DNA of 64,000 nt from an uncultured Syntrophaceae bacterium (lineage in GTDB: Bacteria > Desulfobacterota > Syntrophia > Syntrophales > PHBD01): contig CAZLFA010000011.1 of the NCBI GenBank assembly GCA_964558665.1, forward strand, positions 4,617-68,616, written 5' to 3'. Of the stretch, positions 9,701 through 54,002 are shown in pieces. The translations under genes and the position numbers were made by a program. Under the pieces are notes generated by a model. That model was not told the origin of the DNA and did not search any database. It saw only the letters and a program-made list of their open reading frames with translations. Each line of letters opens with the position of its first letter. Within the stretch, counting starts at the first letter, position 1.

Positions 9701-10003
9701 TCACTTGCCGGAGATGGTGAATATTGTTTCCAGCTTCAGTTCATGAAAAAGCTGCAGAATATCATTTTGCACATTCACCAGCAGGACCCTCCCTCCCTGC
9801 ATGGCAATGTTCTTGTAGAAAAGGAGGAGCTTTCCTATTCCCGAACTGCCGATGTAGGATACATCAGACATGTCTATGGTCACTTCCTTGAGAGCAGCCA
9901 GTTCTCGAAGTTTTGCCTTCAACGCCTCGGCCCCCTTTTCATCAACGTCACCCCTGATTTCAACTCTCCCGCTATTTTCATTCCGGCTTACTGTGATTTC
10001 CAT
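9701..10003 (-). CDS. STAS domain protein (anti-sigma factor antagonist, SpoIIAA/RsbV-like)
   Basis: 100 aa with the typical STAS phosphorylatable-Ser region DMSDVSYIGSSGIGKLL. It lies 33 nt downstream of the PP2C/kinase fusion gene. Confidence 0.8.
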   Translation of the reverse strand: MEITVSRNENSGRVEIRGDVDEKGAEALKAKLRELAALKEVTIDMSDVSYIGSSGIGKLLLFYKNIAMQGGRVLLVNVQNDILQLFHELKLETIFTISGK

Positions 10004-10036
10004 ATGGCATCTCCTTTGCTTATTTATTGTTTCCGG

Positions 10037-13318: not shown

Positions 13319-13373
13319 CTGATATGTACCTCACCGGTATTTTGCCGCGGCTGACAATCTCTGTTCACGCTTT

Positions 13374-14528
13374 TCAGGATTGAAAGAGCCTCATTATTTT
13401 CTCACTGGAATGTACAGTCGGCATTTTTATGGTGTCCACGTGAGGATCAGCATAATCATCAGCCGTTATGCGGAATTTATCCTTTGCAATCATAAAAGCC
13501 GACAGAACATCGCTGTCAAAATGTTCGGGTCTTGTGTGATCATCACCTTCCATGATGATCTTAACAGCCTGCTCATGGTTAAAGGGATGTTTATATATCC
13601 TGCGGCTGGTCAGCGCATCATAGACGTCAGCCAGCGCCATCAGCCTGCCGGAAACAGGAATATCGTCGCCGGCAAGCCCCAGATAACCGGAGCCGTCCGC
13701 CCTTTCATGATGAGTGAAGGCGATCTCTCCTGCGTGTTTCAGAAAATCGGAGGAAACATATCCGGCCACTTCAATCTCGATTTTCAGGATGGAGTCCCGT
13801 CCGATCTCCACATGGTTTTTCATGATCTGAATTTCATCGTTTGTGAGTTTGTCGGGCTTGAACAGAATGCGATCCGGTATGCCGACCTTTCCGATATCGT
13901 GAAGCTGGGCCGACTTGCTGATCACGCGGATATTTTCATCAGTAAGATAGTCTCTGTATTTCGGGGTTGCTTTCATCGCTTCGGCCAGATGCTGCACATA
14001 GAACTGAGTCCGCTTGATATGCCTTCCGGTTTCTATGTTCCTGTATTCTGCAAGGGTCGCCAGCCCGTAAATGATGGCATCCCTGGTCAGGGCGAGCTCA
14101 CGCGTTCTCTCATTCACAATCTCATCAATGTGATCTCTGCAGAGCTTGTGCATAATGTGACTGCGCAACCGTGACTTGAGCAGCGCCGGCCTTAGAGGTT
14201 TGTGTATATAGTCGACGGCGCCCAGCGAAAGACCCTTCTGTTCGTCATCTTCATCATCGCCTGAAGTGACGAAGATTACCGGGATGTCTCTGGTCCGCTT
14301 ATCTGATTTAAGAATCCGGCATACTTCATATCCATCCATGCCCGGCATCAATACATCCAGAAGGATGGCATCCGGCGGATTATCGCCGCCGGCCAGGTAA
14401 AGGGCCTTCCGTCCGTCAAGCGCTGCAATAACAGCATACTCATCACGTAGCGTTTCCATCATCACCTGGATATTATTCGGCGTATCGTCAACAATAAGCA
14501 CCTTTTTTCGCCCCATGTCCTGATTCAT
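13374..14528 (-). CDS. Response regulator receiver + HD-GYP-type phosphohydrolase (probable c-di-GMP phosphodiesterase)
   Basis: REC motifs (VLIVDDTP..DAILLDVLMPGMDG..K). HD (QLHDIGKVGIP) and HHERADGSGYLGL, where the motif reads GYL rather than canonical GYP. Confidence 0.85.
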   Translation of the reverse strand: MNQDMGRKKVLIVDDTPNNIQVMMETLRDEYAVIAALDGRKALYLAGGDNPPDAILLDVLMPGMDGYEVCRILKSDKRTRDIPVIFVTSGDDEDDEQKGLSLGAVDYIHKPLRPALLKSRLRSHIMHKLCRDHIDEIVNERTRELALTRDAIIYGLATLAEYRNIETGRHIKRTQFYVQHLAEAMKATPKYRDYLTDENIRVISKSAQLHDIGKVGIPDRILFKPDKLTNDEIQIMKNHVEIGRDSILKIEIEVAGYVSSDFLKHAGEIAFTHHERADGSGYLGLAGDDIPVSGRLMALADVYDALTSRRIYKHPFNHEQAVKIIMEGDDHTRPEHFDSDVLSAFMIAKDKFRITADDYADPHVDTIKMPTVHSSEKIMRLFQS

Positions 14529-14540
14529 CTGCCGGCTCCG

Positions 14541-17500: not shown

Positions 17501-19598
17501 CATTGAGAAAGCTGAACTTTCCTTCCTGCACTATGTAAACACCGGCGATTGATTTCTCCGCTATCAGCCGATATCTCTCTTCACTTTCCTGAACCGCCGT
17601 TTCAGCAACCCTCCCTCTGATGATTTTCTGCAATTCACTGGCAACCAGATTGACCTGCATGACATCAAGATCATTGTATTCCGCCGACTTGTTGCCTACC
17701 CCGAAAATAATTCTGACCTTTCCGTCTTCAATCACGGGTATGCTCATGAAGCGGCTGATCGTTGTATGCCCTTCGGGGAGGCCCTTTCTGTTCGGTGAGT
17801 TATTGTAGTCATTATAAACGACAGCACCCTTCAGACGGACACAATCCACCCAGTTTCCCGCGCTTTCGATTGAATAATGGGCATCATGAGAGACTGCGCA
17901 GTTTTCCATTGCCTGTCCGTTCCATGCTGTCAGAACGACGCTTGCCTGATCGTCGGAAACAAGATGAAAAAAGCCCACTTTGCTTTCTGTAAGGCTCACC
18001 GCCCTTTCAAGCACATAGTTGTACAGCTCTCTGTCGGTAAGCTTCGGCGCCTTTTCATACAGCTCGAGGAGATACCTGCCCCGTTCCAATTCTTTATGAA
18101 GGAGTTCTTCCCTCTTTATTTTTTCCGAAATGTCCCTGAATGTCAGAACTGCGCCGACAACTCTGCCTTCTTCGACAATCGGTGTGCTTGTATATTCAAC
18201 CGGAATGCCGGTTCCGTCCTTTTTCCAGAAAAGATCTTTTGCTATGTGATGAACCTTCCCGTCTCTGTATGCCGCATATATGGGACACTCCTCTTCAGGA
18301 TAACTGCCGCCGACGGCCCTTGTATGGTGAAATGTCTTGTGGCTTTCAAGCCCCGTCATTTCCCCGGTATCATAACCGAGCATTTGAGCGGCTACAGGAT
18401 TGACATAGACATGCCTTCCTTCGGTATCCAGCCTTATGATGCCCTCACCCGCCGATTGCAGGATCTGCTCTTTCTCATTTTTCAACTGCGCGATCTTCGC
18501 CTCGGCTATCCTGCGCTCCAGATGCCTCCGCTCGAGTATTTCAGCCATTTCATCAAACGATCTGGCCAACTGTCCGATCTCGTTCTCCTCGTAGGGAAGC
18601 CCTGTCCGGGCGTCCAGATTCCCCTGTCCAAGCTGTTTCGAAGCCTCGACCAGCACATCCATCCTCTTTGCTATTATCCGGTTGCCTATGAGATGCGCCA
18701 CAATCAGCGCCAGCAGAGCGGCAATCCCAAGCAGCTCCAGATTCCTCATCAACGCGCGATCAGCCGCGGCAAGAACCTGTTCTTCCGGAATTCCGACACG
18801 GATATAAAGGTACGGGGTCTTAACTCCCGGAAGATGAATACGCTTATATCCGTAAAGACGCCTTTTACCGTCAACTCCCGTGGCGAAAAAATTGCCTTCA
18901 CCTTCAGAGGACGACATTCTTGAGATCATTTCCGGCAGATCCTTCTCGCCTGCATACCTCTCAAAGGCCGGATAGCGGTAAAGGCGGACGCCATTGCCAT
19001 CGGTGAGCGCGATTGCCGATCCTTCCGGCAGCCTGGCTATTTCAAAATATTTTTCGTAATACGCCGCATTGAAGCCCGCGGCAGCAACAGCGCGAACCTT
19101 TCCATTCGCTCCGGTTACCGGATAGGCATAATGAAATACAGGCACACCGGCTGAGCGGCTCAGCACATACTCGCCGATGGAAAACTTGCCGGTTCGCATA
19201 ATTTCCTTGAAGTATTTGCGGTCGGCTATGTTGAATGACTTAACGAGAGGAGCAGAGGCAAAAACGGCGCCTTCCGGAGATGCGACATTTATGACTGCAT
19301 AACCGGGATTTTTAGCCAGCAGCTCATTCAGCAGCAGCTCACATTCCTTTACGTTCTGTTGCTCCACAGCCGGAATTTTGGAGATCATCATGAGCAGTTG
19401 GCGGGTGCTGTTTGTTATATTCTCCTGCTGAATGGCCACCCCCTGGGCAAGGTTTGTTATGTCGCGCCTGGCTTTTTCAATCTCTTCGCTTCTCCTTTCC
19501 ATGCCGGTCAGAACAATTATTCCCAGAGCCGGCAGGATGGCGAAAAAAACCAGCACAAATAGATGGATGCGGATAGGAAGCGAGAAAACCGACCTCAT
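14541..19598 (-). CDS. Hybrid sensor histidine kinase (periplasmic sensor-HAMP-PAS-GAF-PAS-PAS-HisKA-HATPase-REC-REC-HPt)
   Basis: 1685 aa. H-box SEFLANMSHEIRTPMN. N/G boxes (LINLGNNAVKFT, DTGIGM, GGTGLGLAIS). Two receiver domains (ILVVDDSH..DLVIMDWRLQG; VLLAEDNE..DIVLMDVQMP). C-terminal HPt-like SHSMKSVAGLIGA. Confidence 0.9.
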   Translation of the reverse strand: MRSVFSLPIRIHLFVLVFFAILPALGIIVLTGMERRSEEIEKARRDITNLAQGVAIQQENITNSTRQLLMMISKIPAVEQQNVKECELLLNELLAKNPGYAVINVASPEGAVFASAPLVKSFNIADRKYFKEIMRTGKFSIGEYVLSRSAGVPVFHYAYPVTGANGKVRAVAAAGFNAAYYEKYFEIARLPEGSAIALTDGNGVRLYRYPAFERYAGEKDLPEMISRMSSSEGEGNFFATGVDGKRRLYGYKRIHLPGVKTPYLYIRVGIPEEQVLAAADRALMRNLELLGIAALLALIVAHLIGNRIIAKRMDVLVEASKQLGQGNLDARTGLPYEENEIGQLARSFDEMAEILERRHLERRIAEAKIAQLKNEKEQILQSAGEGIIRLDTEGRHVYVNPVAAQMLGYDTGEMTGLESHKTFHHTRAVGGSYPEEECPIYAAYRDGKVHHIAKDLFWKKDGTGIPVEYTSTPIVEEGRVVGAVLTFRDISEKIKREELLHKELERGRYLLELYEKAPKLTDRELYNYVLERAVSLTESKVGFFHLVSDDQASVVLTAWNGQAMENCAVSHDAHYSIESAGNWVDCVRLKGAVVYNDYNNSPNRKGLPEGHTTISRFMSIPVIEDGKVRIIFGVGNKSAEYNDLDVMQVNLVASELQKIIRGRVAETAVQESEERYRLIAEKSIAGVYIVQEGKFSFLNANAASYAGYGPHELIGRVATAIVHDDDRELVRANAVKMLRGKRRAPYEFRIVTREGKTRWIMETVTSVHLGGKPAILGNSMDITEIKEAMEKIEEQKAMESSILIAIPHAVMGLHNRRIVFANDAVEQVFGWTPEELIGQTTRVLYGSESDYKDIGMTFYSAMKDQRNYSTEYTCIRKDGRNIVCRINISAIGDHFSEGRVVVVYEDITERKRAEIDLENYRNRLEELVNERTAELVAAKKVAEAATQSKSEFLANMSHEIRTPMNAVLGMTHLALQTDLTGKQADYLHKIESAGQSLLGIINDILDFSKIEAGKLDIEETDFMLEDVLDNAVTIIGMKASEKKLELLVDTAPDVPVSLSGDALRLGQVLINLGNNAVKFTEQGEVIIRTRLVKREFEGEQEKIHLQFSVIDTGIGMTEEQQGRLFQPFMQGDSSVTRKYGGTGLGLAISRRLVEMMGGRIIVDSELYKGSIFSFFAVFGAGAVTSRHYVETSAELKGLRILVVDDSHAARQILKGMLDAMGLIVKDTASAEKAIAEIKKADTDMPYDLVIMDWRLQGTNGIEAAQYIKSYLKLKNIPKILMATAYSYEDIRTRAEKAGLDGFLLKPISPSVLLDTIMVLFGKERITPCTAAEDHKPSVHLAGIAGAQVLLAEDNELNQQVAKELLEKAGLVVSLAGNGLEAVEKAKQGIFDIVLMDVQMPLLDGYEAARIIRRRLDLKDLPIIALTAHVLSRDREECLLSGMNDYISKPINPENLHAMLLKWIKPGQRMAIPLQKSGREAVDDSLPEELPGIAVRESVTRMMQGDARLYLKAIQSFVENHADDAHAVREAIQKGDREKALRISHSMKSVAGLIGAKRLQWSSRGLEKAIKDVRKEAWEELIADFDHHLSGAISVLREYLDRYHARSGSENVCIPDGKSVNEIISEMLVTLETDLPKAMDALNPLGMLLQGTTLAEKYEQLKKNLLVYDTDNARRDLEFMNTALMS

Positions 19599-19624
19599 GC
19601 ATCTGCCTCCTGCAGAGTCATCAT

Positions 19625-21169
19625 TCAGAAATCCTCAAAATTTTCATCGGTCGTCATGCCGTCTGCAACAGCCGGCAACCGTGTATAGCGCGGCATAGAT
19701 ATTCCCTTCTTCATTTCCGGAAACGGCTCTGTTTTTCCTGCTTTGTTGATCTGTGCCGATTTGCCTTTAAGTACATTGCCGTTCGATCCGGCGATTACAT
19801 TCGTCAGATCGCCGACATACCCCTTCATCTCGGCTGCCTGCGCATTGAGTTCTTCTGCTGCGGATGCAGCCTCTTCTGCGCCCGCAGCATTGCGCTGTAC
19901 AACAATATCCATCTCCACGACGGCCTTCCTGATCTGTTCAATTCCCTGCGCCTGCTCACGGGAGGCCGTTTCTATCTCATCAACCAGGACAGAGATCTTC
20001 ATGGCAATATCCTTATTTGCCGCAAAGGCCGCCTGTGTCGATCTGGTCAGTTCACTTCCCCGTCTGACCGCCTTTATGGAGTTTTCTATCAACGTACCCG
20101 TGCTCTTTGCCGCGTCCGCCGCCCTGATGGCCAGGCTCCTTACCTCCTCGGCAACCACAGAGAAGCCGGCGCCTGCCTCTCCGGCACGGGCCGCCTCAAC
20201 CGCTGCATTGAGCGCAAGCAGGTTCGTCTGAAAGGCTATTTCATCGATTGTTCTTATGATCTTTCCGATCTCTTCACTTGTTCTGGTGATTTCTTCGACG
20301 GCCCCGATCATCTGCCCCAGTTCGGAATTGGCCTTTTCAACAATGTTTTTCGCTTCATCCATCATCGATCTTGTTTCCGTGGCATTGTCCGCATTCTTTC
20401 TGGTCATAGCCGACAATTCCTCCAGAGACGCAGATGTTTCCTGAATTGCCGCGGCCTGTTCAGTGGCGCCTTCGGCCAATGACTGACTGGATGTAGACAC
20501 CTCGTTTGAGGCGGCGGAAACATGATTGGAACCCAGTTCCAGCCCTTCAATCACCTTGTTGATCGGCCTTGTGATGAGCCTGGTGATGCCCAGCGCAAAG
20601 CACAGCCCCATAGCGACAGCGAGCACAGCACCGCCGATAATAAGTTTATTGGCCCAGGATATTTGAAGCTGCAGCTTGCCGAAGTGATTGTTTTTCGCTT
20701 CGACACATTCCTTTTCCACTGCTCTTCCGGAATCGCGAAGGGACGCGTCAAAGACCTTCAATTGCTGCTCACGCACCTCAGGTGAAATATCTTTATTCCC
20801 CAGAAAGATCACCATTTCAGCAAAGGTTTTTTCATATCTGGAAGCCGCTGCCAGTATGTTGTCCATCTGCCGGGCATTTTTCTGGTCCCGGAAGCGTTTC
20901 TTAAGATTTTCTGCTGTTGTTTTCAGCTTCACGATTGCGGAGTTGGTTTCATCCACCCATTGCTGTTCTCCCCTGATGATGAAGTTTTTTTCATAGCGGC
21001 GCGCCTGCAGTATGTACTTGCTGATGTTGTCCGTCTCATCAACCTTAAAGAAACGATCGGTTACTACCGACAAACTGTCCCACCCCACATACGCAACAGA
21101 TGCCGTCAGCAGCATGATCACGACAAATCCGGCCATTATTTTCGTACGCAGCTTTATATTCCCGAACAT
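19625..21169 (-). CDS. Methyl-accepting chemotaxis protein
   Basis: MCP hairpin [41 protein letters not shown] place the start at ATG 21169 (MFGNIKL..) because AGGGAGG lies 5 nt upstream; the track ORF extends to 21199. Confidence 0.9.
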
Positions 21170-21330
21170 TTTAACCTCCCTGATTTCCGGAGGCGCCATC
21201 CAGCCACCTCCATGAATCTCACATCCAGACCGGCGACGGGCCTTTCATCCCCTTGGAGCCTGCCGCCGCTGAAAGTTAAGTTGCTTCATTTTCAACATGG
21301 ACCGCCTTGACTCCCGGTTTTCTGTTATGA

Positions 21331-43313: not shown

Positions 43314-44399
43314 TTAAGTCTCCACCCTCTTGAACAGATATATGGCGGCTGTAACGAAGATGGCGTTCGCGAGCCAGGCGGAGATAAAAGGTGGAACAGT
43401 GCCCGAACGCCCCAGAGACATGGAAAAAGCATGTACTATCCAATAGGAAAATCCTATGACGATGCCCGCACCGATGCTTTTTGTCACGCCGCCGCTTCTC
43501 CCCATTTTCAGCGAAAATGATATGCCGATGAATACAAGTATCAGAGTTACAAAGGGGAAGGCCATCCTCCCGTACATATCTACCAGATGCCTTGTTACAT
43601 CGTATCCTTCACTTTCCATCTTGTTTATATAACGTCTGAGCTCCAGATATCCCATCTGCTCCGCATCCTTTTGAATGACCTGAAAATCGGCCGGCTCCTC
43701 CGCTATATCAATGTTCTTTTTATCAATCCACTTCAGCCTGGGAAATGTCCCGGCATCAAAGTAGCTCTCCATGATGTTGTGGAGCGTCCATGCCCCGTTT
43801 TTCCATTCCGCCCATTCCGCGTCGATGCGCGACGTCAGATGAAAGCCGGAATCGAGGTAGAAGATGGTAACCCCTTTCAGTATTTTATTATCCGGATCGA
43901 AAACCCTGAAATTATAAATGGCTCCTTTTCCCCGGTACCATATCTGGTTTTGCTTGAAGGCCCCCTGCCCCGCCTTTTTTTGCTTCTGTACCTCTACCAG
44001 CCTTATGTGCTCCGCCTTCTCGATGCCGTAAGGAGTCAAAAACTCCGTCACATAGAAGGTCACCAGACAGAGGATTCCGGCAATGATGATGACGGGAAGG
44101 GATATCCGGTAGAGGCTTATGCCGTTGGCTTTCATGGCTATTATCTCATTGTAGCGCGATAAGGAAGCAAAGGTCATCAGCGAGGCAAGCAGCACGGAAG
44201 CCGGAATAGTAAGAGATGCAAACAGGGGAATCTCATAAAAAAAATAGGACGACATCTGCGCGAAGGTCGCCTTATTGGACATAAACATCCGGATTTTACC
44301 GAAAAAATCAACCAGCAGGGAAAGCGAAATAAGCGTCAGCAAAATCAAAAAAAGCTGTTTTATAAATTCCCTTGATACATAACGATCAAGAATCGTCAT
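43314..44399 (-). CDS. LPS export ABC permease, LptF/LptG (YjgP/YjgQ) family
   Basis: MTILDRYVSREFIKQLFLILLTL.. N-terminus, a 6-TM layout with a large periplasmic loop and a length of 361 aa. Confidence 0.8.
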   Translation of the reverse strand: MTILDRYVSREFIKQLFLILLTLISLSLLVDFFGKIRMFMSNKATFAQMSSYFFYEIPLFASLTIPASVLLASLMTFASLSRYNEIIAMKANGISLYRISLPVIIIAGILCLVTFYVTEFLTPYGIEKAEHIRLVEVQKQKKAGQGAFKQNQIWYRGKGAIYNFRVFDPDNKILKGVTIFYLDSGFHLTSRIDAEWAEWKNGAWTLHNIMESYFDAGTFPRLKWIDKKNIDIAEEPADFQVIQKDAEQMGYLELRRYINKMESEGYDVTRHLVDMYGRMAFPFVTLILVFIGISFSLKMGRSGGVTKSIGAGIVIGFSYWIVHAFSMSLGRSGTVPPFISAWLANAIFVTAAIYLFKRVET

Positions 44400-44528
44400 C
44401 GGGTGTCCTCTATTCTAAATCAGTCTCCATCCGAAAGGTTAGAATGCGAGACCATAAGTTTCCTGCTCGGAGATGTAAAAGGAGTATTTGCTATCACGTT
44501 TAACTTTTGAAAATCAAATAGAAAATAA

Positions 44529-45710
44529 TTAGAAAAGACTCAACAGCAGACCCTTCAGATACGCCCCCTCCGGGTGCGCAAGATCTACGGGATGGTCTCC
44601 CCCTGGACTCAGCGAAGCTATGATCCTGGCTGATTTCCCGGCATCGGCGACAGCACTCTGCACGATCTTCCTGAACAGCTCCTCATTGATGTAATTGGAG
44701 CAGGAAAAGGTGGCCAGGATGCCCCCTTCCGACAAGCGCCTTGCCGCCTGCAGGTTGATGTCCTTGTAGCCTCTGGCCGCCCTCGGAACCTCTTTTTTTG
44801 TCTTGGCAAAAGCAGGGGGATCAAGGATAATGAGATCGTACATTTCTTCGGTCTGCCTGAGAAAAGTAAAGACATCCTCCCGGATTACCGGGTGGCGTCT
44901 GGGCGGAAAATAGTTTCTCTCCAGATTGCGCACCGCCGCTTCATTGGCTGACGCCGACGCCTCCACGGACACGACCCGTCTTGCCCCTCCATGGGCGCAG
45001 TACACGGAGAAGCCGCCCGTATAGGAAAAACAGTTGAGGACTCGCAGCCCTTCGGAAATCCGGCATAACTTCTCCCGGTTTGTCCGCTGATCCAGGAAGA
45101 AACCCGTCTTCTGCCCGGAGACGATGTCCGTTTCAAAGACAAAACCGTTCTCCGTGATTTCCACGAAATCGGGTATCTCATCGCCATAGACATGGCCGGT
45201 CCTGTCTGTCAGGCCTTCCGTCTTCCTGGCTCGCCCTTCGCTGCGCTCATACATCGCCAGGGGACGTATCTGGCGGATAAGGACATCGCTTATAGCCTCC
45301 CACGCCTTCTCAATACCCGCAGTGGAGATGGAAACGACGAGGTATTCACCATAACAGTCGACGATAAGTCCCGGCATGCCGTCTCCCTCGGCATTGATCA
45401 GCCGGTAGGCGGTGGTGCCGGGAGGGATGATCCTACTGCGCAGTTCAAAGGCGGAGGCGACCCGGCGGCGCCAGAACAGTTCGTTCACGGGCTGTGAGAC
45501 GTCCCTGCTCAGCATGCGGAAGGTGATATCCGCGTTGCGGTTGTAGAAACCCAGCGCCAGCGGCTCGCCTTCTGCAGATGCTGCGGCAACAATATCGCCG
45601 GATTCCGCTTTCCCCTCAACAGAGCGCACTGCCCCGGAAAAAATCCAGGGGTGCCCCTGTTTCAGCGACCTCTCGCGTCCGGGCTTCAATGTCAGAACAG
45701 GATAGTTCAT
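44529..45710 (-). CDS. SAM-dependent rRNA (cytosine-C5) methyltransferase, RlmI-like (PUA + class I MTase)
   Basis: LKPGRERSLKQGHPWIFSGAV N-terminus, a SAM-binding VLNCFSYTGGFS motif and DLIILDPPAF. Confidence 0.8.
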   Translation of the reverse strand: MNYPVLTLKPGRERSLKQGHPWIFSGAVRSVEGKAESGDIVAAASAEGEPLALGFYNRNADITFRMLSRDVSQPVNELFWRRRVASAFELRSRIIPPGTTAYRLINAEGDGMPGLIVDCYGEYLVVSISTAGIEKAWEAISDVLIRQIRPLAMYERSEGRARKTEGLTDRTGHVYGDEIPDFVEITENGFVFETDIVSGQKTGFFLDQRTNREKLCRISEGLRVLNCFSYTGGFSVYCAHGGARRVVSVEASASANEAAVRNLERNYFPPRRHPVIREDVFTFLRQTEEMYDLIILDPPAFAKTKKEVPRAARGYKDINLQAARRLSEGGILATFSCSNYINEELFRKIVQSAVADAGKSARIIASLSPGGDHPVDLAHPEGAYLKGLLLSLF

Positions 45711-45801
45711 ATTAACAGCATCAGGGACAGCAGAATGTATCCGGAAATCTTATTCACCAAGATACCCACACCTCTTCAAAACAGTTTCATCGGGGCTTCT
45801 T

Positions 45802-47313
45802 TCAGCAATCAACCATCGTCACGCCCAGGCCGCCGGTTCCCATCTCCCTGAACTGGGGAGGCAGGGCCTTGCCAGTCTCCAGCATGGCCATGATGACTCT
45901 GTCAAGGTCTTCCCAGTGCTGCGAGGTGATCTCGTTAGCCGCTATGAGATAGGCATTGTAGGCCTTGATGGCCCCGAAGGCGTTGCGTTCGATGCACGGT
46001 ATCAGCACAAAGCCTCCCACCGGGTCGCAGGACATGCCGAGATGATGCTCAAGGGCAATCGTTGCGGCTACCTCCGTGGCCTCAAGGGATGCGCCGGATG
46101 CATAGGCGATCATGGCAGCGGCCATCGATGACGCCACGCCTATTTCGCCCTGGCATCCCACTTCCGCTCCGGCAATGCCTGCATTGTTCTTGCACAGAAA
46201 CCCGACCAGCCCGGCGGCAAGCAGGCCTTTACGCATCGCGTCGCGCGACATTTTCATGTGGTTCTTCATTACATAGACAATTGCCGGCATGGTTCCCGCC
46301 GAACCAAGGGTGGGGGCGGTAACCGCCAGACGCCCGGCGGCATTGCCTTCCGATACGGCCAGGGCGTAGCTGCTCACCTGCTGCATATAACGGTCCCCTC
46401 CCTTTGCTTTCAGGGACTGCGTGTAAATTCTTTTCGCCTTACGGTGCATCTGAAACGGCCCTGGCAGGAGGCCTTCTTCCTTTAGCCCTTGTTTGACGCC
46501 GTTTTCCATGGTCTCCAGAACCATGTCGAGGTGCGCAAATATCTCCTTCTCGCCTGTTTTCATGATGGCCTTTTCGTTCTCGATCATAATCTCATGCAGG
46601 CTCTTATTTTTCTCCTTCGCCACACGCTTGAATTCTGTCATGCTGCCGTAGCGGTGCACCGGCTGTCCGCGATCCGGAGCCGGCTGCCCTTTCCACTGGA
46701 AGAAGCCTCCACCCGGAGAATAGTATTCCCGTTCGAAGAGTACCGATCCGTCCTTGCCGATCAGACGCATGATCAGCGTATTGGTAAACGGATAGTTATG
46801 CTCGATCTTGTCCCATACCAGCGTGTCTTTGCCCAGCACGAAGCTTTTCCCGTTGATTACGGTCGTGTACTTCTTTGTGGTGTCCTGAAGTTCATCCATC
46901 AGCTTCGGGTCGCATGTTTCAGGTTTCTGCCCCAGCAAACCCGCCAGTATGGCGCGGTCGGTACGGTGCCCTCTGCCGGTGGCGCTCAGGCTGCCGAAGA
47001 GCCTCGCCTCAATGGATTGCGCTTTATCCATGGTGCTTTTCGGAAGACCTTCCAGAGCCTCCCGGAAATTGCTCGAAATGCGCAGGGGCGCAATGGTATG
47101 GGAACTCGACGGTCCCGGACCGATCTTGAACATATCCTTAAGCGAAGTCACGATCACACCCTTGGGCGCGCCCTGGTAGCACTTGTCCGCTGCGATGCCG
47201 GGAAAGGCACGGGAAGGGATTCCCCTGGCAGATGCAGGATTCGGGTTCAGCAGAAGACTGCCGACGCCTGCCGATGAAATCAAGGCGACCTTCAAAAAAT
47301 TGCGACGATCCAT
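45802..47313 (-). CDS. sdaA: Iron-sulfur L-serine ammonia-lyase (single-chain L-serine dehydratase) with an N-terminal twin-arginine signal-like extension
   Basis: The core starts at DMFKIGPGPSSSHTIAPLR (canonical SdaA N-terminus) and is preceded by MDRRNFLKVALISSAGVGSLLLNPNPASARG (RRxFLK + hydrophobic region + ASA). Confidence 0.85.
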   Translation of the reverse strand: MDRRNFLKVALISSAGVGSLLLNPNPASARGIPSRAFPGIAADKCYQGAPKGVIVTSLKDMFKIGPGPSSSHTIAPLRISSNFREALEGLPKSTMDKAQSIEARLFGSLSATGRGHRTDRAILAGLLGQKPETCDPKLMDELQDTTKKYTTVINGKSFVLGKDTLVWDKIEHNYPFTNTLIMRLIGKDGSVLFEREYYSPGGGFFQWKGQPAPDRGQPVHRYGSMTEFKRVAKEKNKSLHEIMIENEKAIMKTGEKEIFAHLDMVLETMENGVKQGLKEEGLLPGPFQMHRKAKRIYTQSLKAKGGDRYMQQVSSYALAVSEGNAAGRLAVTAPTLGSAGTMPAIVYVMKNHMKMSRDAMRKGLLAAGLVGFLCKNNAGIAGAEVGCQGEIGVASSMAAAMIAYASGASLEATEVAATIALEHHLGMSCDPVGGFVLIPCIERNAFGAIKAYNAYLIAANEITSQHWEDLDRVIMAMLETGKALPPQFREMGTGGLGVTMVDC

Positions 47314-47356
47314 AAGACACCTCCTGGTTTATTATTAGATCTGTTGATGATTGATA

Positions 47357-48952
47357 TCAACCGGCTGCGAGAGCGATAATGATCTGGACGATTACGATCT
47401 TCAGTATCGTCGCGCCGGGGAAGATAATAGCATATCCGATATCGGGCCGGTCCGTCGGAACCAGTTTGGCGGCATACGCAAGAATGGCGGGATTCCCGGT
47501 AACGCCGGCCGTTATGCCGAGAAGGTCGTCGAAGGGAATCTTCATGACACGGTAGCCGACGCTCATTGTAATCAGGACGACAGACAGGAGCATAACTGCT
47601 CCGATCGCAAGAAACAGAAAACCTGTCTCATGAACTGTGGCCACAAATTTAGGGCCGGAACTCATGCCCACCTGAGCAAGGAAAAGCGTCAAGCCGAAAT
47701 TGCGCAGCGTCAGATTGGCCGATATCGGCATCGTCCAGGACATAATGCCGGTCCGTCCCAGTTTGCCCAGGATCAATGCCATGATCAGCGGGCCTCCCGC
47801 GAGTCCCAGTTCCAGCGTTCCCAGGCCGGGCACGGGAAACGGAATAGACCCGAGGATGACGCCGAGCACCATGCCGATGCCGATGGAGATATAGCTGAAT
47901 TCCGTCGTGCTCTTTATGGAGTCTCCGAATGCCTTGCGCAGCGCGGCATCGTCCTTCATGTCGACGAGAACTCCCACCAAGTCGCCGAATTCAAGAATCA
48001 GATTAGGCCGTGGAAGCAGCTGTGTATCGCCGCGTCTTACATTGACGATGGTATGGTCGATATCAGGAATCTTCAAATCGGCCAGACGGGTTCCGACCAT
48101 CGTTCTTTTGGAAACGAAGACTCGTGAATAAATCATTTTCTCACGGCCGGCCAGTATTCTGCCTCTGGGATCGTATTCTCCCAGAAGCTGTCTGGCCTGC
48201 TCAATGCCCTCGTGCTCGTTGCCGACAGCCATGACGACATTGTTCTCTTCCAGAACCAGATCCTGATGAGCTATCCGGTTGACGTGATTCTGGCGGACGG
48301 CAATTACCTGCACGCTGAGAGGAAGAAGCTGAGAGATCTCACAGAGCGTCTTCCCCGCAACGCCGGGATTTCTTACTATCATTTCCACCGTTTCCAGACC
48401 GCCTCCGGTGGCCGCTTCGATGCGCGGCTTTATGATGAGCATGGCGATATACATGCAGAGAATGGGGCCGATGACTCCGAAGGGATAGGCCACACTGTAA
48501 CCGATTGCCGGTTCGCTGTTTTTGGCCGCTTCCATCGCCGCCTGCAGTGTTGCGGTGCTTGTCATTGACCCGGCAAACATACCCGCCACGTATGTGCTCC
48601 TGATGTGCATAATCTCAATTGCCGCGAAAATGACTGCCACGCACGCGGAAAGGGCAAGGACGGCAAGGAGATTGTAGCGGCGGCCGGCAGCGCTCATCAG
48701 ACCGGAAAAGAACTGCCTGCCGTACTGGATGCCGATCCCGTAAAGAAACATCACTAGACCCAGAGTCCCCACAAGTCCCGGCGGCGCTGACTTGGGTGCG
48801 AACGCCCCCACAGCAAGACCGACAAAAAGAACGGCGCCGACGCCCAGGGAAAACCCGCGCATATTGATCTCTCCCAGGGCATAACCGATGCCGATGACCA
48901 GAAAGAGCGTCATGATCGGTGTCTGTTCGAGGATGAGCTTCAGATATTCCAT
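47357..48952 (-). CDS. AspT/YidE/YbjL-family transporter (duplicated membrane domains with central TrkA-C/RCK_C domains)
   Basis: 531 aa with N- and C-terminal multi-TM halves and a central soluble region (..VVMAVGNEHEGIEQARQLLG.. / ..GDLVGVLVDMKDDAALRKAFG..). The family call is from memory. Confidence 0.65.
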   Translation of the reverse strand: MEYLKLILEQTPIMTLFLVIGIGYALGEINMRGFSLGVGAVLFVGLAVGAFAPKSAPPGLVGTLGLVMFLYGIGIQYGRQFFSGLMSAAGRRYNLLAVLALSACVAVIFAAIEIMHIRSTYVAGMFAGSMTSTATLQAAMEAAKNSEPAIGYSVAYPFGVIGPILCMYIAMLIIKPRIEAATGGGLETVEMIVRNPGVAGKTLCEISQLLPLSVQVIAVRQNHVNRIAHQDLVLEENNVVMAVGNEHEGIEQARQLLGEYDPRGRILAGREKMIYSRVFVSKRTMVGTRLADLKIPDIDHTIVNVRRGDTQLLPRPNLILEFGDLVGVLVDMKDDAALRKAFGDSIKSTTEFSYISIGIGMVLGVILGSIPFPVPGLGTLELGLAGGPLIMALILGKLGRTGIMSWTMPISANLTLRNFGLTLFLAQVGMSSGPKFVATVHETGFLFLAIGAVMLLSVVLITMSVGYRVMKIPFDDLLGITAGVTGNPAILAYAAKLVPTDRPDIGYAIIFPGATILKIVIVQIIIALAAG

Positions 48953-49220
48953 GAGATGACCTCCCTCTGAGTACTGGATTTGATGAGTGGGTAAGTATAG
49001 AGAAGCAGCTCTCTTATGTCAATCAAAACCGGCCTGACATGCAGGGAATATAGGTGCCGACATTATTGGCTGTCGCACCGACCGGCAATTAATCAGTTGC
49101 CGGATGGAACTTTGTAAGGTCTGCGCAAAGGGTTTGCAAAGGTGAGAACGCAAGGAACAGGCATGCCTGTTCCCTACAAATAATTTCATCATGATGCCGA
49201 TGTGGCGAGCGCTCTGATTC

Positions 49221-49242
49221 AGAAAAGGAAAGAACTCTTTCC
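49221..49242 (-). terminator. Rho-independent terminator downstream of the OmpR-type RR gene
   Basis: On the - strand: GGAAAGAGTTCTTTCC (49242..49227) followed by TTTTCT, 11 nt after the stop codon. Confidence 0.6.
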
Positions 49243-49252
49243 GGATGGAAGC

Positions 49253-49984
49253 TTACTGATGGTCGAATATATATCCAATCGAACGCAGGCTCTGGAAATA
49301 TGCAGGGTTGTGAGGATCGTCCTCGAAGTATTTCCTCAGACGTACCAGAAAGATATCGACTGTGCGTGTGTTGGACTGGCCGGTATATCCCCATCCTACT
49401 TCCAGCAGGTATTTTCTGGATAAAGGCTTACCCCTGTTTGCGATAAATACCTTGAGCAGTCTTGCTTCCTGATCTGTGAGCTGTATCGTTCCCTGCCGGC
49501 ATACGGCCGTCATGGTTTCGAAATCCACTGTATTGCCGCCAAAGGAGTAGGTTTTCATCTCCGACGCCTCTGCCTGATCATCCGGCTTGTGATGTCCGTT
49601 CCACGAGGCGCGCATCATGAGACGCTCAATTCGCAGCAGAAACTCATCGAGGTTGAAAGGCTTGGCAAGATAGTCGTCCACTCCGCAGGCAAAACCTTTG
49701 ATACGGTCATCCGGTTCTCCCTTGGCGGAAAGAATCAACACGGGGATCCTCTCATCGGCAAGCCTGATATGCTTCAACACGGAGAAGCCGTCAAGCCCCG
49801 GAAGCATGATATCCAGTACGATAAGCTGGGGGTTCCAGTCCTTCCACCTCTGAATGCCCTGGGGACCGCTGCCCGCAATCTCCACATCGTACCCCTGAAG
49901 GGTAAGGTTCAGCTTCAATCCCTCGGCGATATGCCGGTCGTCCTCGACGACAAGTATGCGGCGGCGCTCACTGTGCTTCATCAC
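49253..49984 (-). CDS. OmpR/PhoB-family response regulator
   Basis: ILVVEDDRHIAEGL..LIVLDIMLPGLDG.., with a C-terminal winged helix (..TVDIFLVRLRKYFE..IGYIF). Confidence 0.9.
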   Translation of the reverse strand: MMKHSERRRILVVEDDRHIAEGLKLNLTLQGYDVEIAGSGPQGIQRWKDWNPQLIVLDIMLPGLDGFSVLKHIRLADERIPVLILSAKGEPDDRIKGFACGVDDYLAKPFNLDEFLLRIERLMMRASWNGHHKPDDQAEASEMKTYSFGGNTVDFETMTAVCRQGTIQLTDQEARLLKVFIANRGKPLSRKYLLEVGWGYTGQSNTRTVDIFLVRLRKYFEDDPHNPAYFQSLRSIGYIFDHQ

Positions 49985-50988
49985 TTAACCTCCATCTTGC
50001 CATCGAGAGGAAGCGTCAGCGTAAAGACGGACCCTTTGCCCTCCCCTTCGCTTTCGGCGGCGATTTTTCCCTTATGCAGCCTGGCAATGTGCTGCACAAG
50101 ATACAGACCTATGCCGCTGCCGTGCGCGGCGACTTTTTCATGGCGGATTCCCTGATGAAATTTCTGGAATATCTTTTTCCTCTCCCCTTTTGCGATGCCG
50201 ACTCCGTTGTCACGAAAATGAATTAATATATTTGTTTGCGTAACGTTAAAGGAGATATCGATGCGCGGTCTCGCCGATTCATTATATTTAACGGCGTTAT
50301 TGAGGATGTTCATGAGGAGGATTTCGAACAAAGACGTGATCACCGGATAGAAAACGGGCTTTCCCGAGACATTCTCGACGCTGATGTCGCAATCATTGAA
50401 TATGTGGCGGTTTGCCGACAGGAAGTGCTGGACGACCTCCACGAGATCGCGCAGTTCATGCTCTCCTTCATATACCTTGCTTTCGATGCGGGCCAGGTTA
50501 AGGATGCTGTTTATGTTTCCCGAAAGACGCTCTATGTCGCTGAGCATGAAATTTATATATTTCAACTGTTCTTCACGGGGAATTTCATGTCTGGCGAACG
50601 TTTCCAGATACAGCTTGAGCGAGGTCACCGGAGTTTTCAACTCATGCGTAAAATTGCCGATGAAGCTGTTCTGCATCCTGTACAACTGGTAGGTTTTGAG
50701 ATTGTAGATAAAGATGATGAGGATGCCTGCCAGAATCACGCCCACCAGCAATGAGAGGACAAGGATGACCACCCAGGTCTTCGCTTCATAAAACTGGTTG
50801 GGATCAAGTCGATAGTGGCGGATAAGCCAGTGCAGCCCCTCACTAACCGTTACGTACCAGTAAATATAGAGAAAAAGAGAGATCACCAGCGCGACGGTGG
50901 AAAGAGTAAATACGAAAATCGGGTGGATGTACCAGCTTGGCTGCTTCATAATGTGAAAGACATTATCGTAGGTCTCTGCCCATGTCAA
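49981..50988 (-). CDS. Sensor histidine kinase (PhoR/EnvZ-like, two TM segments)
   Basis: H-box FIGNFTHELKTPVTS and HATPase boxes (LNNAVKYN, DNGVGI, GSGIGLYLV). There is a 4-nt overlap with the RR gene. Confidence 0.88.
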   Translation of the reverse strand: MTWAETYDNVFHIMKQPSWYIHPIFVFTLSTVALVISLFLYIYWYVTVSEGLHWLIRHYRLDPNQFYEAKTWVVILVLSLLVGVILAGILIIFIYNLKTYQLYRMQNSFIGNFTHELKTPVTSLKLYLETFARHEIPREEQLKYINFMLSDIERLSGNINSILNLARIESKVYEGEHELRDLVEVVQHFLSANRHIFNDCDISVENVSGKPVFYPVITSLFEILLMNILNNAVKYNESARPRIDISFNVTQTNILIHFRDNGVGIAKGERKKIFQKFHQGIRHEKVAAHGSGIGLYLVQHIARLHKGKIAAESEGEGKGSVFTLTLPLDGKMEVK

Positions 50989-51123
50989 CAGAGACCGCCT
51001 ATCGATTTTCTTTCCCCTGCCGGGACAATTGTAAAAGTATTGTAAAACACTGTATTTACTCTTTTTTTATCGACCAAAATCTCCTATGTTGCGCCCCAGC
51101 AAAAACAGAAAAGGAGACCCGAC

Positions 51124-52872
51124 ATGCCAGCTCAGACCCAACCTGTACATCCCCTTGGAACACGCACCCGCGTACTTTTGACCAGCGTCTTCGGACCGTA
51201 TGCGCAGGACGATGAATACGGAAGCCGCCGCATCAATCCGATGGAACTCTACCAGAATCAAGTTACAAGGGTTCAGGGAGGTTTTTCGCTTCGCATGTTT
51301 CACCGCTCCTTCGGCCTGCTCATGATCCAGAACAATATTGACGCCCCATGCACCCTGCTCGATTTTCCCACCCTCGATCGTTTTACGGAAACCATCCGCA
51401 ACAATAACTATGACATCATCGGCATCAGCGGCATCGTCGTTAACGTCATGAAGATTAAAAAGATGTGCGAACTCATCAGGCAATACCAGCCGCAGGCGAC
51501 CATCGTCATCGGCGGTCATGTAACGAACAAGGAAAATCTTCATGAAATAATTGATGCAGACCACATTGTCCGCGGAGAAGGTATCCGCTGGTTTCAGCGA
51601 TATCTCAGCCAGGACGACAAGCAGCCCGTAAAGCATCCGATGCTGCTTTCCGGGTTCGGGGCAAGAATGATGGGTGTCAATCTGGGAAGCAGACCGGGCG
51701 GCACGGCGGCGATTCTCATACCATCGGTCGGCTGCCCCATGGGGTGCAACTTCTGTTCGACCTCGGCACTGTTCGGCGGCAAGGGGAACTTCATCAACTT
51801 TTACGAGTCCGGGGATGAACTTTTCGACGTGATGTGTGAAATGGAAAGAACTCTCAATGCAAAGTCATTTTTCACCCTCGACGAGAACTTCCTTTTGCAT
51901 AAACAGCGGGCGCTTCGCCTTCTGGAGCTGATGGAAAAGCACGGCAAGAGATGGGCTTTGTATGTCTTCAGCTCCGCTGGCGTGCTGAAATCATACACCA
52001 TCGATCAACTTATCCGGCTGGGCGTCAGTTGGGTCTGGATGGGGCTGGAAGGGAAGGAAAGCTCCTACAACAAACTGAAGGGAGTGGATACGCGCGAGCT
52101 GGTCAATCTGCTGCAGTCCAACGGCATCCGCGTCCTGGGCTCTTCAATCATCGGCCTGGAGGAACACTCTCCCGACAACATCGATGAAGTCATCGACTAC
52201 TCCATAAGCCATGACACGGTCTTTCATCAGTTCATGCTCTACACGCCGGTGCCGGGAACGCCGCTCTATGAAAAGCACAAGCAGGAAGGCACACTGCTTC
52301 CGTCTTCAGCGATTAATGTGGCAGACATCCATGGGCAGTACAGGTTCAACTATGTCCACCGGCATATCCGCGACGGCAGGGAAGAGCAGTATCTCCTCAA
52401 TGCCTTTGAGCGAGATTTTAAAGTCAACGGTCCCAGTCTGCTGAGGCTTATCAGGGTGATGCTCAAAGGCTGGCAGATGAACGGCAATCATGCCAGCAAA
52501 CGCGTTCGTGACCGCATCAACTGGGAGATTTTTCCCCTGCGTTCCACATATGCGGGCGCCGTTTGGGCGATACGCAAATGGTACAGGGATGACGAGCAGA
52601 TCTACAACAAAGCTCATGAACTGCTCAAAGACATCTACGGGGCATTCGGATGGAAGACAAGGATTCTTGCTCCCTTCATCGGTATTTATGCATACCATTC
52701 GCTGAAGAAGGAAGAGAAGCGTCTTTCCGAAGGCTGGATGTACGAACCTCAAACCTTCCTTGAAAAGAATGAAGCGGCTTTGAAGCTTGATAGCGCACTG
52801 AAAGCCCGGCAGAAAGAAAAATCACAGCTCCATCTGCCCGCGGGTTCACCAACCGCAGCCGCCGCAGATTGA
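51124..52872 (+). CDS. B12-binding-domain radical SAM enzyme, substrate unknown
   Basis: N-terminal Rossmann-like B12-binding region (DIIGISGIV..IVIGGHV) and radical SAM cluster motif VGCPMGCNFCS. Confidence 0.75.
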   Translation: MPAQTQPVHPLGTRTRVLLTSVFGPYAQDDEYGSRRINPMELYQNQVTRVQGGFSLRMFHRSFGLLMIQNNIDAPCTLLDFPTLDRFTETIRNNNYDIIGISGIVVNVMKIKKMCELIRQYQPQATIVIGGHVTNKENLHEIIDADHIVRGEGIRWFQRYLSQDDKQPVKHPMLLSGFGARMMGVNLGSRPGGTAAILIPSVGCPMGCNFCSTSALFGGKGNFINFYESGDELFDVMCEMERTLNAKSFFTLDENFLLHKQRALRLLELMEKHGKRWALYVFSSAGVLKSYTIDQLIRLGVSWVWMGLEGKESSYNKLKGVDTRELVNLLQSNGIRVLGSSIIGLEEHSPDNIDEVIDYSISHDTVFHQFMLYTPVPGTPLYEKHKQEGTLLPSSAINVADIHGQYRFNYVHRHIRDGREEQYLLNAFERDFKVNGPSLLRLIRVMLKGWQMNGNHASKRVRDRINWEIFPLRSTYAGAVWAIRKWYRDDEQIYNKAHELLKDIYGAFGWKTRILAPFIGIYAYHSLKKEEKRLSEGWMYEPQTFLEKNEAALKLDSALKARQKEKSQLHLPAGSPTAAAAD

Positions 52873-52931
52873 GATTGCCAACATAAGCGCCTTCTGGTAC
52901 GTTTCTCTCACAATACATGGGAGGTTACGCT

Positions 52932-54002
52932 ATGTACGCAGTCATCATGGCGGGCGGCAAGGGAACCAGGTTCTGGCCGCGCAGCAGGCAGGGCATGCCC
53001 AAACACCTGCTTGATATTGTCAGCGAGAGGACTATTATCCAGGAAACTATCGATCGCATCCTGCCTTTGGTTCCTGCCGAAAAAATCATCATTGTAACAG
53101 GAAAAAGCCACGCCGGGGAATTGATGCGGCAACTGCCGCTCATTCCCCGTGAAAACGTCATTATCGAACCGGTGGGAAGAAACACAGCACCCTGCATAGG
53201 GATCGCAGCCCTGCATATCATGAAGAAGGCGGGAGACGACGTCATGGTTGTACTGCCTTCGGATCACAAAATTGATGATAAAGCGGAATTCATAAATGTT
53301 CTGAGGGCGTCCGCCGATATGGCATCAAGGGGAGATTACCTGGTCACGATCGGCATCAGCCCGACCAGGCCTGAGACAGGCTACGGCTATCTTGAAAAAG
53401 GCGCCGTTGCAGCCGCTATCGACGGAGAAAAAATATACAGGGTAAAATCAATAAGAGAAAAGCCGGATCTGGACCAGGCCAAGGCATTCATCAGGAGAAA
53501 AAACTTTTTCTGGAACAGCGGCATGTTTATCTGGAAGGCATCCGCAATTCTCAACGCCATTAACCGCTGGTTGCCCGCGCTTCACGAAGGGCTTGCCGAT
53601 ATCGGCCCGTCCATCGGAACCGATAAGGAAAAAGACGCCATGGAAAGCGTCTATGGATCGCTTCAATCAATTTCCATAGACTACGGCGTCATGGAGCGGG
53701 CCGATAACGTTCTTATAGTACGCGGCGATTTCGGCTGGTCTGACATCGGCAGTTGGGACGCTCTCTGGGAGGCATCTGCCAAAGACCCGTCAGGAAATGT
53801 CACCCGGGGGAGGATAGCAGCGATTGGCACAAGGAATTCACTCGTCTTTGCTTCGGATAAACTTATAGCCGCCGTAGGGGTGGAAGATCTCATTGTTGTA
53901 GATACGGGCGACGCTCTCCTTATATGCAGGAGAGGATCTTCACAGGACGTCAGGCAAATCGTCGACCTTCTGGAAGAAAAGGGAATGAAGCACCTGCTTT
54001 AA
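52932..54002 (+). CDS. Mannose-1-phosphate guanylyltransferase (nucleotidyltransferase domain only)
   Basis: MYAVIMAGGKGTRFWPRSR.. and the EKP motif (IREKPD). GGGAGG lies 7 nt upstream of ATG 52932; the track start is 52917. Confidence 0.85.
   Translation: MYAVIMAGGKGTRFWPRSRQGMPKHLLDIVSERTIIQETIDRILPLVPAEKIIIVTGKSHAGELMRQLPLIPRENVIIEPVGRNTAPCIGIAALHIMKKAGDDVMVVLPSDHKIDDKAEFINVLRASADMASRGDYLVTIGISPTRPETGYGYLEKGAVAAAIDGEKIYRVKSIREKPDLDQAKAFIRRKNFFWNSGMFIWKASAILNAINRWLPALHEGLADIGPSIGTDKEKDAMESVYGSLQSISIDYGVMERADNVLIVRGDFGWSDIGSWDALWEASAKDPSGNVTRGRIAAIGTRNSLVFASDKLIAAVGVEDLIVVDTGDALLICRRGSSQDVRQIVDLLEEKGMKHLL

Follow-up and report, generated by a model that had tools for sequence, protein, structure and literature searches.

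Iron-sulfur (Fe-S) L-serine dehydratases are otherwise cytoplasmic enzymes. What, then, should be made of one that begins with an apparent signal for the twin-arginine translocation (Tat) pathway? We met this question in a stretch of 64,000 nucleotides (64 kb) from an uncultured Syntrophaceae bacterium (contig CAZLFA010000011.1 of assembly GCA_964558665.1, positions 4,617 to 68,616 of the forward strand), and "the window" below means this whole stretch. The gene in question (45802..47313, minus strand) is complete and encodes 503 amino acids followed by a stop codon. It is not an isolated case but part of a large signal-bearing clade, which we call clade A, and two further signal-bearing clades exist. 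Overall, we consider it reasonably probable that the window protein is a Tat-exported, periplasmic Fe-S L-serine dehydratase paralogue, probably cleaved and soluble. The signal-bearing dehydratases together make up a large, apparently undescribed group whose members are probably sent out of the cytoplasm in folded form.

Results

Enzyme core

The enzyme core was recognized from the list of open reading frames (ORFs), profile searches, the closest solved structure and a structure prediction. Pfam placed an SDH_beta domain (PF03315) at residues 57-208 (46690..47145, minus strand; E 6.6e-40), followed by the catalytic alpha domain SDH_alpha (PF03313) at residues 234-496 (45826..46614, minus strand; E 9.2e-70). 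Both domains were also found in the alignment to the solved relative described below, and the beta domain in the invariant columns of the clade. The protein exceeded the cut-off of the NCBIfam equivalog TIGR00720 (sda_mono, EC 4.3.1.17; 391.7 bits versus 345.1) and scored under the cut-offs of the models specific for enterobacterial SdaA/SdaB (NF011598 and NF011614). The only full-length solved relative was the type-2 enzyme of Legionella pneumophila (PDB 4RQO, E 6.6e-90), which aligned from residue 54 to the last residue. An AlphaFold (AF2) model, built from an alignment of 51 sequences, had a mean predicted local distance difference test score (pLDDT) of 84.7, and its best Foldseek match in the PDB was again 4RQO, with a template modelling score (TM) of 0.86.

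The residues known from the Legionella enzyme were all present in the window protein and invariant among the 51 clade A members compared. Three predicted cluster ligands, Cys387 (46153..46155), Cys429 (46027..46029) and Cys440 (45994..45996), and the predicted fourth, the C-terminal Cys503 (45805..45807), all encoded on the minus strand, aligned to Legionella Cys343, Cys385, Cys396 and Cys458. Likewise, S69-S70-S71-H72 corresponded to Ser16-18 and His19, H116 to His61 and T335 to Thr290. The roles of Ser16-18 and of Thr290, the latter a substrate-binding threonine, were reportedly described by Thoden et al. in 2014. In the Legionella enzyme, Cys343, Cys385 and Cys396 ligate the cluster, Cys458 acts both as fourth ligand and as an intrinsic inhibitor in a "tail in mouth" arrangement, and His61 is the proposed catalytic base (PMC12647591).

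Judged by its sequence, the window protein is a bona fide type-2 single-chain enzyme of the Fe-S L-serine dehydratase family. This agrees with an original prediction, made by a model from the letters of the window, which had also placed about 50 extra residues ahead of the SdaA core; as canonical enzymes, including 4RQO, align from residue 54, the extension measures about 53-56 residues.

N-terminal extension

The first 29 residues (47227..47313, minus strand) read as a Tat signal peptide, a prediction that draws on the profile model TIGR01409, on conservation and on direct reading. The n-region MDRRNFLK, which contains the motif D-R-R-N-F-L-K (D2-K8; 47290..47310, minus strand), is followed by the h-region VALISSAGVGSLLL and the c-region NPNPASA, and the 21 residues after RRNFLK, ending with A27-S28-A29, are all uncharged. 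Signal peptidase I is predicted to cut after this last triplet. The predicted mature protein then opens with a clade-specific linker, delimited by alignment (RGIPSRAFPGIAADKCYQGAPKGVIV, residues 30-55; 47149..47226, minus strand), which begins with RGIP and has no counterpart in canonical enzymes. The linker includes the invariant residues G31 and I32 and often Cys45, and the model gives it a pLDDT of 66-73. A periplasmic disulfide between Cys45 and Cys134 was considered and rejected, since about 14 clusters have lost Cys45 while keeping Cys134 and no clean covariation was seen.

The window protein passed TIGR01409, the NCBIfam Tat-signal model, with 18.7 bits against a cut-off of 16.7; three other clade A members, from Negativicutes, Lamprocystis and Maridesulfovibrio, passed as well, with 17.4-20.9 bits. 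Conservation was assessed in the 120 best homologue clusters (64-100% identity, almost all of 499-503 amino acids and at 100% coverage). The extension is present in 114 of them, and the other six are N-terminally truncated fragments. All 114 extension-bearing clusters have the arginine pair (RR), within the consensus RR-x-F-[LI]-K: the residue at RR+2 is F in 110, that at RR+3 is L, I, C, M or V, and that at RR+4 is K in 108. At the predicted cleavage site, position -3 is A, S, T, V, L or G throughout, -2 varies freely and -1 is A or G (111 of 114), while +1 is R or K in 108 clusters and +2 and +3 are always G and I. This is the pattern to be expected of a Tat signal that is cut by signal peptidase I. 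The Tat consensus, hydrophobic h-region and A-x-A site of the original prediction are thus borne out by a passed model and by wide conservation, with one Pfam model dissenting (see Discussion), and its remark that such a signal is atypical for L-serine dehydratases also holds, as canonical enzymes including 4RQO lack the extension.

Alternatively, the signal might be translocated without being cleaved and serve as an N-terminal anchor that fixes the enzyme to the inner membrane on its periplasmic side, as in Rieske proteins. A conserved junction of this kind could account for the basic residue (R or K) at +1 and for the G-I that never varies at +2/+3. However, the strict small residues at -3 and -1 around a free -2 read as a signature of signal peptidase I. 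In addition, the h-region averages about 14 residues across the 114 clusters, is rich in Gly and Ser and has a mean hydropathy of 1.3, which we judged too short and too weakly hydrophobic for a stable transmembrane anchor. We therefore regard an uncleaved anchor as quite unlikely and continue with a cleaved, soluble product.

A more basic doubt, raised in the original prediction itself, is whether the extension is made at all or whether the real start is internal, near DMFKIG. In-frame codons that could serve (GTG53, GTG55 and ATG61) are indeed present. However, the ATG at 47311..47313 (minus strand) is the first start codon after three in-frame stops, which lie just upstream, and an ideally spaced Shine-Dalgarno sequence, AGGAGG (47320..47325, minus strand), lies 6 nt ahead of it; none of the internal codons has a comparable site. 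The extension is conserved as protein in the 114 clusters, and at ten loci its nucleotide divergence was highest at third, lower at first and lowest at second codon positions, in signal and linker alike, which indicates that it is translated and under purifying selection. An annotation artefact is thereby effectively excluded, and we leave it only a negligible probability.

Distribution, phylogeny and paralogy

How widespread the extension is had been put forward as a check in the original prediction, and its presence in nearly all of the best homologue clusters is matched by a spread across phyla. Clade A occurs in Desulfobacterota and in Nitrospirota, and its named carriers include Syntrophorhabdaceae, Syntrophaceae/Syntrophales, Desulfobacteraceae, Desulfovibrionaceae and Maridesulfovibrio. 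Its proteobacterial carriers (Gamma- and Alphaproteobacteria) include Competibacteraceae, Lamprocystis purpurea DSM 4197, Roseiarcus and other Alphaproteobacteria, and its carriers among the diderm Firmicutes (Negativicutes) include Selenomonadales and Anaeroselena agilis. In our library of 50%-identity representatives, all of clade A falls into one cluster (P0033) plus fragments. All-against-all clustering of the ORFs around 22 signal-bearing loci revealed no recurrent neighbour and no dedicated chaperone. Clade A spans many diderm phyla at 64-94% identity, and such likeness between phyla, in neighbourhoods that are not related, points to horizontal spread of a gene that behaves as a self-sufficient single-gene trait.

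Several individual loci deserve mention. In an alphaproteobacterial metagenome-assembled genome (MAG), the signal-bearing homologue (L020, 10275-11505) is divided between two ORFs (10275-10628 and 10666-11505), possibly through a frameshift, pseudogene formation or an assembly error. A pyruvate formate-lyase (PFL)-like glycyl-radical enzyme lies about 2-7 kb from the signal-bearing dehydratase in three unrelated genomes, of Maridesulfovibrio (L004, 4110-7642), Nitrospirota (L055, 14992-18290) and Rhodospirillales (L071, 16732-19224), with a related activase ORF in the first two. At a Negativicutes locus (L003), the surroundings of the signal-bearing dehydratase include genes for a gamma-glutamyl transpeptidase and an M20 peptidase, at most about 8 kb away.

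Clade B (P0128, P0260, L055 and L071) has about 45% identity, measures about 540 amino acids and has a long n-region, its signal reading ...IDRRTFI[IM]RNAVIGAAAAMTG...EARA|QQ. A dedicated search returned at least 119 clusters at 81% identity or more (P0276-P0394), 115 of which have the motif; the names given to them are Ca. Udaeobacter, Chthoniobacterales or Verrucomicrobia, and the clade is very abundant in soil Verrucomicrobiota. Members were also seen in a Nitrospirota MAG (L055, 9974-11524) and in Rhodospirillales URHD0017 (L071, 9830-11539). The clade B N-terminus resembles the Tat regions of the formate dehydrogenase and EfeB models, scoring far under the cut-offs of those models. Clade C (P0134) begins with MTLRRTFLKMAGASALMLA... 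and scored 16.2 bits with TIGR01409, slightly under its cut-off; this third signal-bearing type is also listed with the start MTLRRTFLKMAG...

In a rough neighbour-joining tree, a single tree computed without bootstrap and compatible with one or several gains of the signal, clade A is monophyletic on a long stem, with the signal-less P0127 and P0129 as sisters, and clades B and C stand apart from it, interleaved with canonical sequences. The nearest signal-less relative (L019, 54% identity) begins MNAITTSVFELFRIGPGPSSSH. Signal-bearing and canonical copies were found within single genomes: one Desulfovibrionaceae MAG holds both a full-length, signal-bearing homologue (L013, 70% identity) and one that aligns from residue 54 (L079, 48%), and chromosome OY762289.1 holds both the signal-bearing P0087 and the canonical L082. 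The putatively exported form is thus an addition to the cytoplasmic enzyme, not its replacement. SdaA together with an SdaC-like permease is the classic cytoplasmic arrangement, and it was seen in a Syntrophorhabdus MAG (L022, 10106-12716), where a canonical SdaA gene is followed by one for a Trp_Tyr_perm (HAAAP, SdaC-like) permease; the signal-bearing copies, which the same bacterial family also has, are without such a pairing.

Divergence of the catalytic domain

Does an enzyme of clade A still act on L-serine? We set 51 clade A sequences against 55 canonical representatives, requiring a clade A consensus of at least 90%, and found that six polar residues, each present in 82% or more of the canonical set, have given way to largely apolar ones in clade A. 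The changes are E323G (E in 51 of the 55 canonical sequences), N336L (N in 45, adjoining T335), S381A (S in 50, six residues before Cys387), E418T (E in 52), Q437L (Q in 53, three residues before Cys440) and D483A (D in 45). A seventh position, G117R, has a canonical conservation of 64% (G in 35 of 55); this clade-specific arginine sits in the beta domain directly C-terminal to H116. Clades B and C retain E323, E418, Q437 and D483 and have also lost N336. The clade A substitutions may tune the environment of the cluster for life outside the cytoplasm, or may alter specificity.

The latter possibilities can be joined in an alternative in which the protein is Tat-exported but neo-functionalised, acting on another periplasmic substrate (L-threonine, L-cysteine, D-serine or an acidic beta-hydroxy amino acid) or working with an altered cluster environment. 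The losses adjoining cluster ligands or Thr335, the arginine beside the catalytic His116, the loss of N336 in all three clades and a TIGR00720 score only modestly over its cut-off could be explained in this way. However, the known Legionella substrate and cluster residues (Ser16-18, His19, His61, Thr290, the three cysteines and the one at the C-terminus) are all invariant, and clades B and C bear Tat signals while keeping four of the polar residues. Such a change of function is unlikely in our view, and we retain a periplasmic L-serine dehydratase paralogue. Nevertheless, because of the lost polar residues, L-serine is a substrate that we infer.

Neighbouring genes

The original prediction had put the dehydratase in an operon with an AspT/YidE-type transporter. 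The transporter gene (47357..48952, minus strand) encodes a YidE/YbjL/AspT-family protein of 531 amino acids with two Asp-Al_Ex domains (PF06826) and two TrkA_C domains (PF02080), recognized by Pfam and NCBIfam. It passed the family model TIGR01625 (208 bits versus 72) and remained under the equivalog cut-offs of AspT (TIGR03802, 193 versus 547) and YidE (NF003007, 311.6 versus 449). The gene ends 43 nt upstream of the dehydratase ATG on the same strand, no terminator-like site was found in this gap, and a consensus scan gave a sigma-70-like promoter candidate upstream of the transporter (TTGACA-17-TATACT, 11 of 12 matches; 48994..49022, minus strand). At this locus the two genes are likely co-transcribed, possibly from this candidate promoter. 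Another promoter-like site, at 47331..47360, was rejected as unlikely to function, as transcription would start at or inside the Shine-Dalgarno sequence. An Rfam scan of 44000..51500 gave no riboswitch or leader RNA match at E <= 1.

The adjacency and its likely co-transcription do not extend to the clade. At none of about 20 other clade A loci, not even that of a 94%-identical orthologue, did the 5-10 kb flanks contain a transporter homologue, and within clade A the adjacency is confined to the nearest relatives. One of these pairs consists of a 95%-identical transporter (P0395) and the dehydratase P0121, a member of the window protein's own 90%-identity cluster; the longest contig of each measures 7,846 bp, and the two appear to share it. 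At two further loci (L087, 2967-6134; L088, 1121-4288), the transporter is 74% and the dehydratase 77% identical to those of the window, and the genes are convergent, tail to tail, across a 63-nt gap; here, gene adjacency persists without the operon arrangement. The claim of an operon therefore stands for this locus, with its 43-nt spacing, shared strand and lack of a terminator, whereas a conserved functional pairing, or a co-directional operon across the signal-bearing clade, was not found.

The transporter has its own associations. In three of four long contigs, orthologues of 61-67% identity lie in a cluster in which the transporter is followed by the phosphate acetyltransferase gene pta and then the acetate kinase gene ackA, with no dehydratase (L089, 5001-9926; L090, 4464-9968; L092, 4215-9998; the pta products carry AAA_26, DRTGG and PTA_PTB domains). 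In L090 and L092, a gene for a small Ion_trans_2 protein lies immediately upstream of the transporter and one for a CoA-transferase farther upstream. This neighbourhood hints at a role of the transporter with acetate or another short-chain carboxylate, and, together with the missed equivalog cut-offs, it makes aspartate/alanine a probably wrong substrate assignment. We speculate that the transporter carries the pyruvate/acetate end of the pathway in this lineage.

These data bear on a stronger proposal, compatible with any reading of the enzyme, that transporter and dehydratase form a dedicated module in which the exchange of substrate and product is coupled to periplasmic deamination. The close, same-strand spacing, the promoter-like site ahead of the transporter and the adjacency in the closest relatives are what such a module would show, and YidE-type transporters recur near other dehydratases: a 53%-identical one at 14270-15949 in the clade B locus L071, 3 kb from the dehydratase, and one of 27% identity directly upstream of a canonical SdaA in a Desulfohalobiaceae MAG (L059, 1890-4962). 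However, the transporter is missing from the 5-10 kb flanks of about 20 other clade A loci, the convergent genes of L087 and L088 can form no operon, and the pta-ackA clusters hold the transporter without the dehydratase. We find a dedicated module possible but doubtful. The link of the YidE family to serine dehydratases, loose and sporadic, may not be restricted to the putatively exported form.

Upstream of the transporter lie the genes of a two-component system, which consists of a histidine kinase and a response regulator of the OmpR type. Downstream of the dehydratase, Pfam identified an RlmI-like methyltransferase, LptF/G, a lipid A acyltransferase and two heptosyltransferases; these lipopolysaccharide (LPS) genes imply a diderm host with a periplasm. 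A regex scan of the window found no other convincing RR signal.

Elsewhere, the region 732..21199, in the first third of the window, holds an unusual density of signalling genes. It encodes a Ser/Thr kinase-HDOD protein (732..2927, minus), an HDOD/HD protein (3270..5156, plus), a GAF-adenylate/guanylate cyclase (5168..6433, plus), two methyl-accepting chemotaxis proteins (7903..9519 and 19625..21199, both minus), a PAS-GAF-SpoIIE-HATPase_c_2 protein (10037..13318, minus), a response regulator-HD protein (13374..14528, minus) and a hybrid histidine kinase of 1685 amino acids (14541..19598, minus). Beyond the two-component system, genes for a B12-binding radical SAM protein (51124..52872, plus) and a mannose-1-phosphate guanylyltransferase-like protein (52917..54002, plus) have no evident link to the dehydratase.

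Discussion

After analyzing these data, we propose a putative route for the window protein. Translation would begin at the ATG at 47313, a step supported by sequence and conservation. The protein would then fold in the cytoplasm and, by homology to 4RQO, receive a [4Fe-4S] cluster on Cys387, Cys429, Cys440 and Cys503. Cofactor-bearing proteins are exported in the folded state by Tat rather than by Sec, and the requirement for an Fe-S cofactor accordingly points to the Tat route; a passenger with this signal would need cytoplasmic folding and cofactor insertion, the presence of the cofactor itself being deduced from the conserved ligands. Through its D-R-R-N-F-L-K signal, in which the 14-residue h-region is weakly hydrophobic, the protein would be recognized by Tat, and it would cross the inner membrane as a folded holo-enzyme. 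Signal peptidase I would cut after A27-S28-A29, as the -3/-1 pattern suggests, and so set free a mature, soluble protein of about 474 amino acids that starts with RGIP. This LPS-bearing and probably anaerobic host would then have an enzyme in its periplasm that deaminates L-serine or a close analogue to pyruvate and ammonium, both of which the cell could take up. The exported enzyme would act beside a cytoplasmic SdaA, and the transporter may move a product in this lineage, outside any conserved unit.

Several points weigh against this interpretation. The Pfam Tat model PF10518 scored the window protein at 15.8, under its cut-off of 22.7. A TatA regex and Pfam analysis of 19 neighbouring or large ORFs detected neither tatA nor tatC in the 64-kb window. 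The clade A substitutions mean that substrate or regulation may differ from those of an L-serine enzyme. Deaminating serine outside the cytoplasm has no evident physiological advantage, and an oxygen-labile periplasmic cluster would be awkward for the clade B hosts of oxic soil.

The first two of these points, together with the cytoplasmic location of other L-serine dehydratases, would suit an enzyme that stays in the cytoplasm and whose Tat-like leader is a remnant or a handle for a chaperone or regulator, like the vestigial motif of NarG. However, remnants lose consensus and cleavage site, whereas here RR-x-F-L-K, the h-region and AxA are kept across phyla and in three clades, and the genomes that retain a separate signal-less copy already have an enzyme for cytoplasmic work. 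We consider a leader without export very unlikely, and a Tat-exported, probably soluble enzyme remains our preferred reading.

A broader proposal, on which our own judgement is evenly divided, is that Tat-exported [4Fe-4S] serine dehydratase paralogues form an unrecognised and widespread class of periplasmic deaminases, the first extracytoplasmic non-redox Lewis-acid Fe-S hydro-lyases, comprising at least three clades, with a remodelled and more hydrophobic pocket in clade A. On this proposal, anaerobic Desulfobacterota, Nitrospirota, Proteobacteria and Negativicutes, as well as the very abundant Verrucomicrobiota of soil, such as Ca. Udaeobacter, would be the groups in which the class arose or spread, and the clade A pocket would be an adaptation either to life outside the cytoplasm or to a novel substrate. 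Full-text searches of the literature, in which incidental co-mentions were judged by title and abstract, returned no paper describing a Tat-dependent or periplasmic Fe-S serine dehydratase, and in public databases these proteins are named solely as L-serine ammonia-lyase or dehydratase.

If the export is real, a classic oxygen-labile cytoplasmic Fe-S enzyme has been relocated to the periplasm, and the repertoire of Tat substrates would extend beyond redox proteins to include a catalytic Fe-S lyase. Serine or an amino acid akin to it would be deaminated outside the cytoplasm, with consequences for carbon and nitrogen scavenging, periplasmic ammonia production and serine toxicity. Moreover, given the annotation as L-serine ammonia-lyase, metabolic models would misplace the compartment of this reaction in syntrophs, in sulfate reducers and in the Verrucomicrobia that are dominant in soil. 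Cultured carriers such as Lamprocystis purpurea DSM 4197 and Anaeroselena agilis make the claim directly testable.

Among known systems, the closest are the Legionella L-serine dehydratase (4RQO) and E. coli SdaA, SdaB and TdcG, with which the window protein shares the beta-then-alpha order, the cluster cysteines and C-terminal cysteine, the SSSH motif, the catalytic His, the Thr and the fold. It differs from these canonical type-2 enzymes in its signal of about 29 residues and linker of about 26, in the seven clade A replacements (at E323, N336, S381, E418, Q437, D483 and G117) and in its predicted periplasmic rather than cytoplasmic location. A distant homologue is CyuA, a [4Fe-4S] L-cysteine desulfidase (PDB 9FYI) and the third Foldseek match, which has a related catalytic domain and chemistry; however, at about 14% identity it is well removed, and the window protein is clearly of the SdaA family. 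The window transporter, in turn, has the architecture of the AspT/YidE/YbjL (AAEx) family, with duplicated Asp-Al_Ex domains and two TrkA_C domains between them, but differs from AspT and YidE in falling under both equivalog cut-offs and in the association of its orthologues with pta-ackA.

The Fe-S proteins that are exported by Tat, namely hydrogenase small subunits, ferredoxin subunits of the NrfC/NapG/DmsB type and Rieske proteins, have roles in electron transfer. The window protein would resemble them in cytoplasmic cofactor insertion, in its RR-x-F-L-K signal and in export in the folded state, whereas its predicted cluster would be the non-redox Lewis-acid catalyst of a hydro-lyase/deaminase, and we know of no other exported enzyme of that kind. 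Asparaginase II (AnsB) and gamma-glutamyl transpeptidase (for example, that of Campylobacter jejuni) are periplasmic, cofactor-free and exported by Sec, and their folds are unrelated to that of the window protein. Nevertheless, they offer the nearest physiological parallel, as in both cases the conversion of an amino acid takes place, or for the window protein would take place, outside the cytoplasm, and the products can enter by transporters that already exist.

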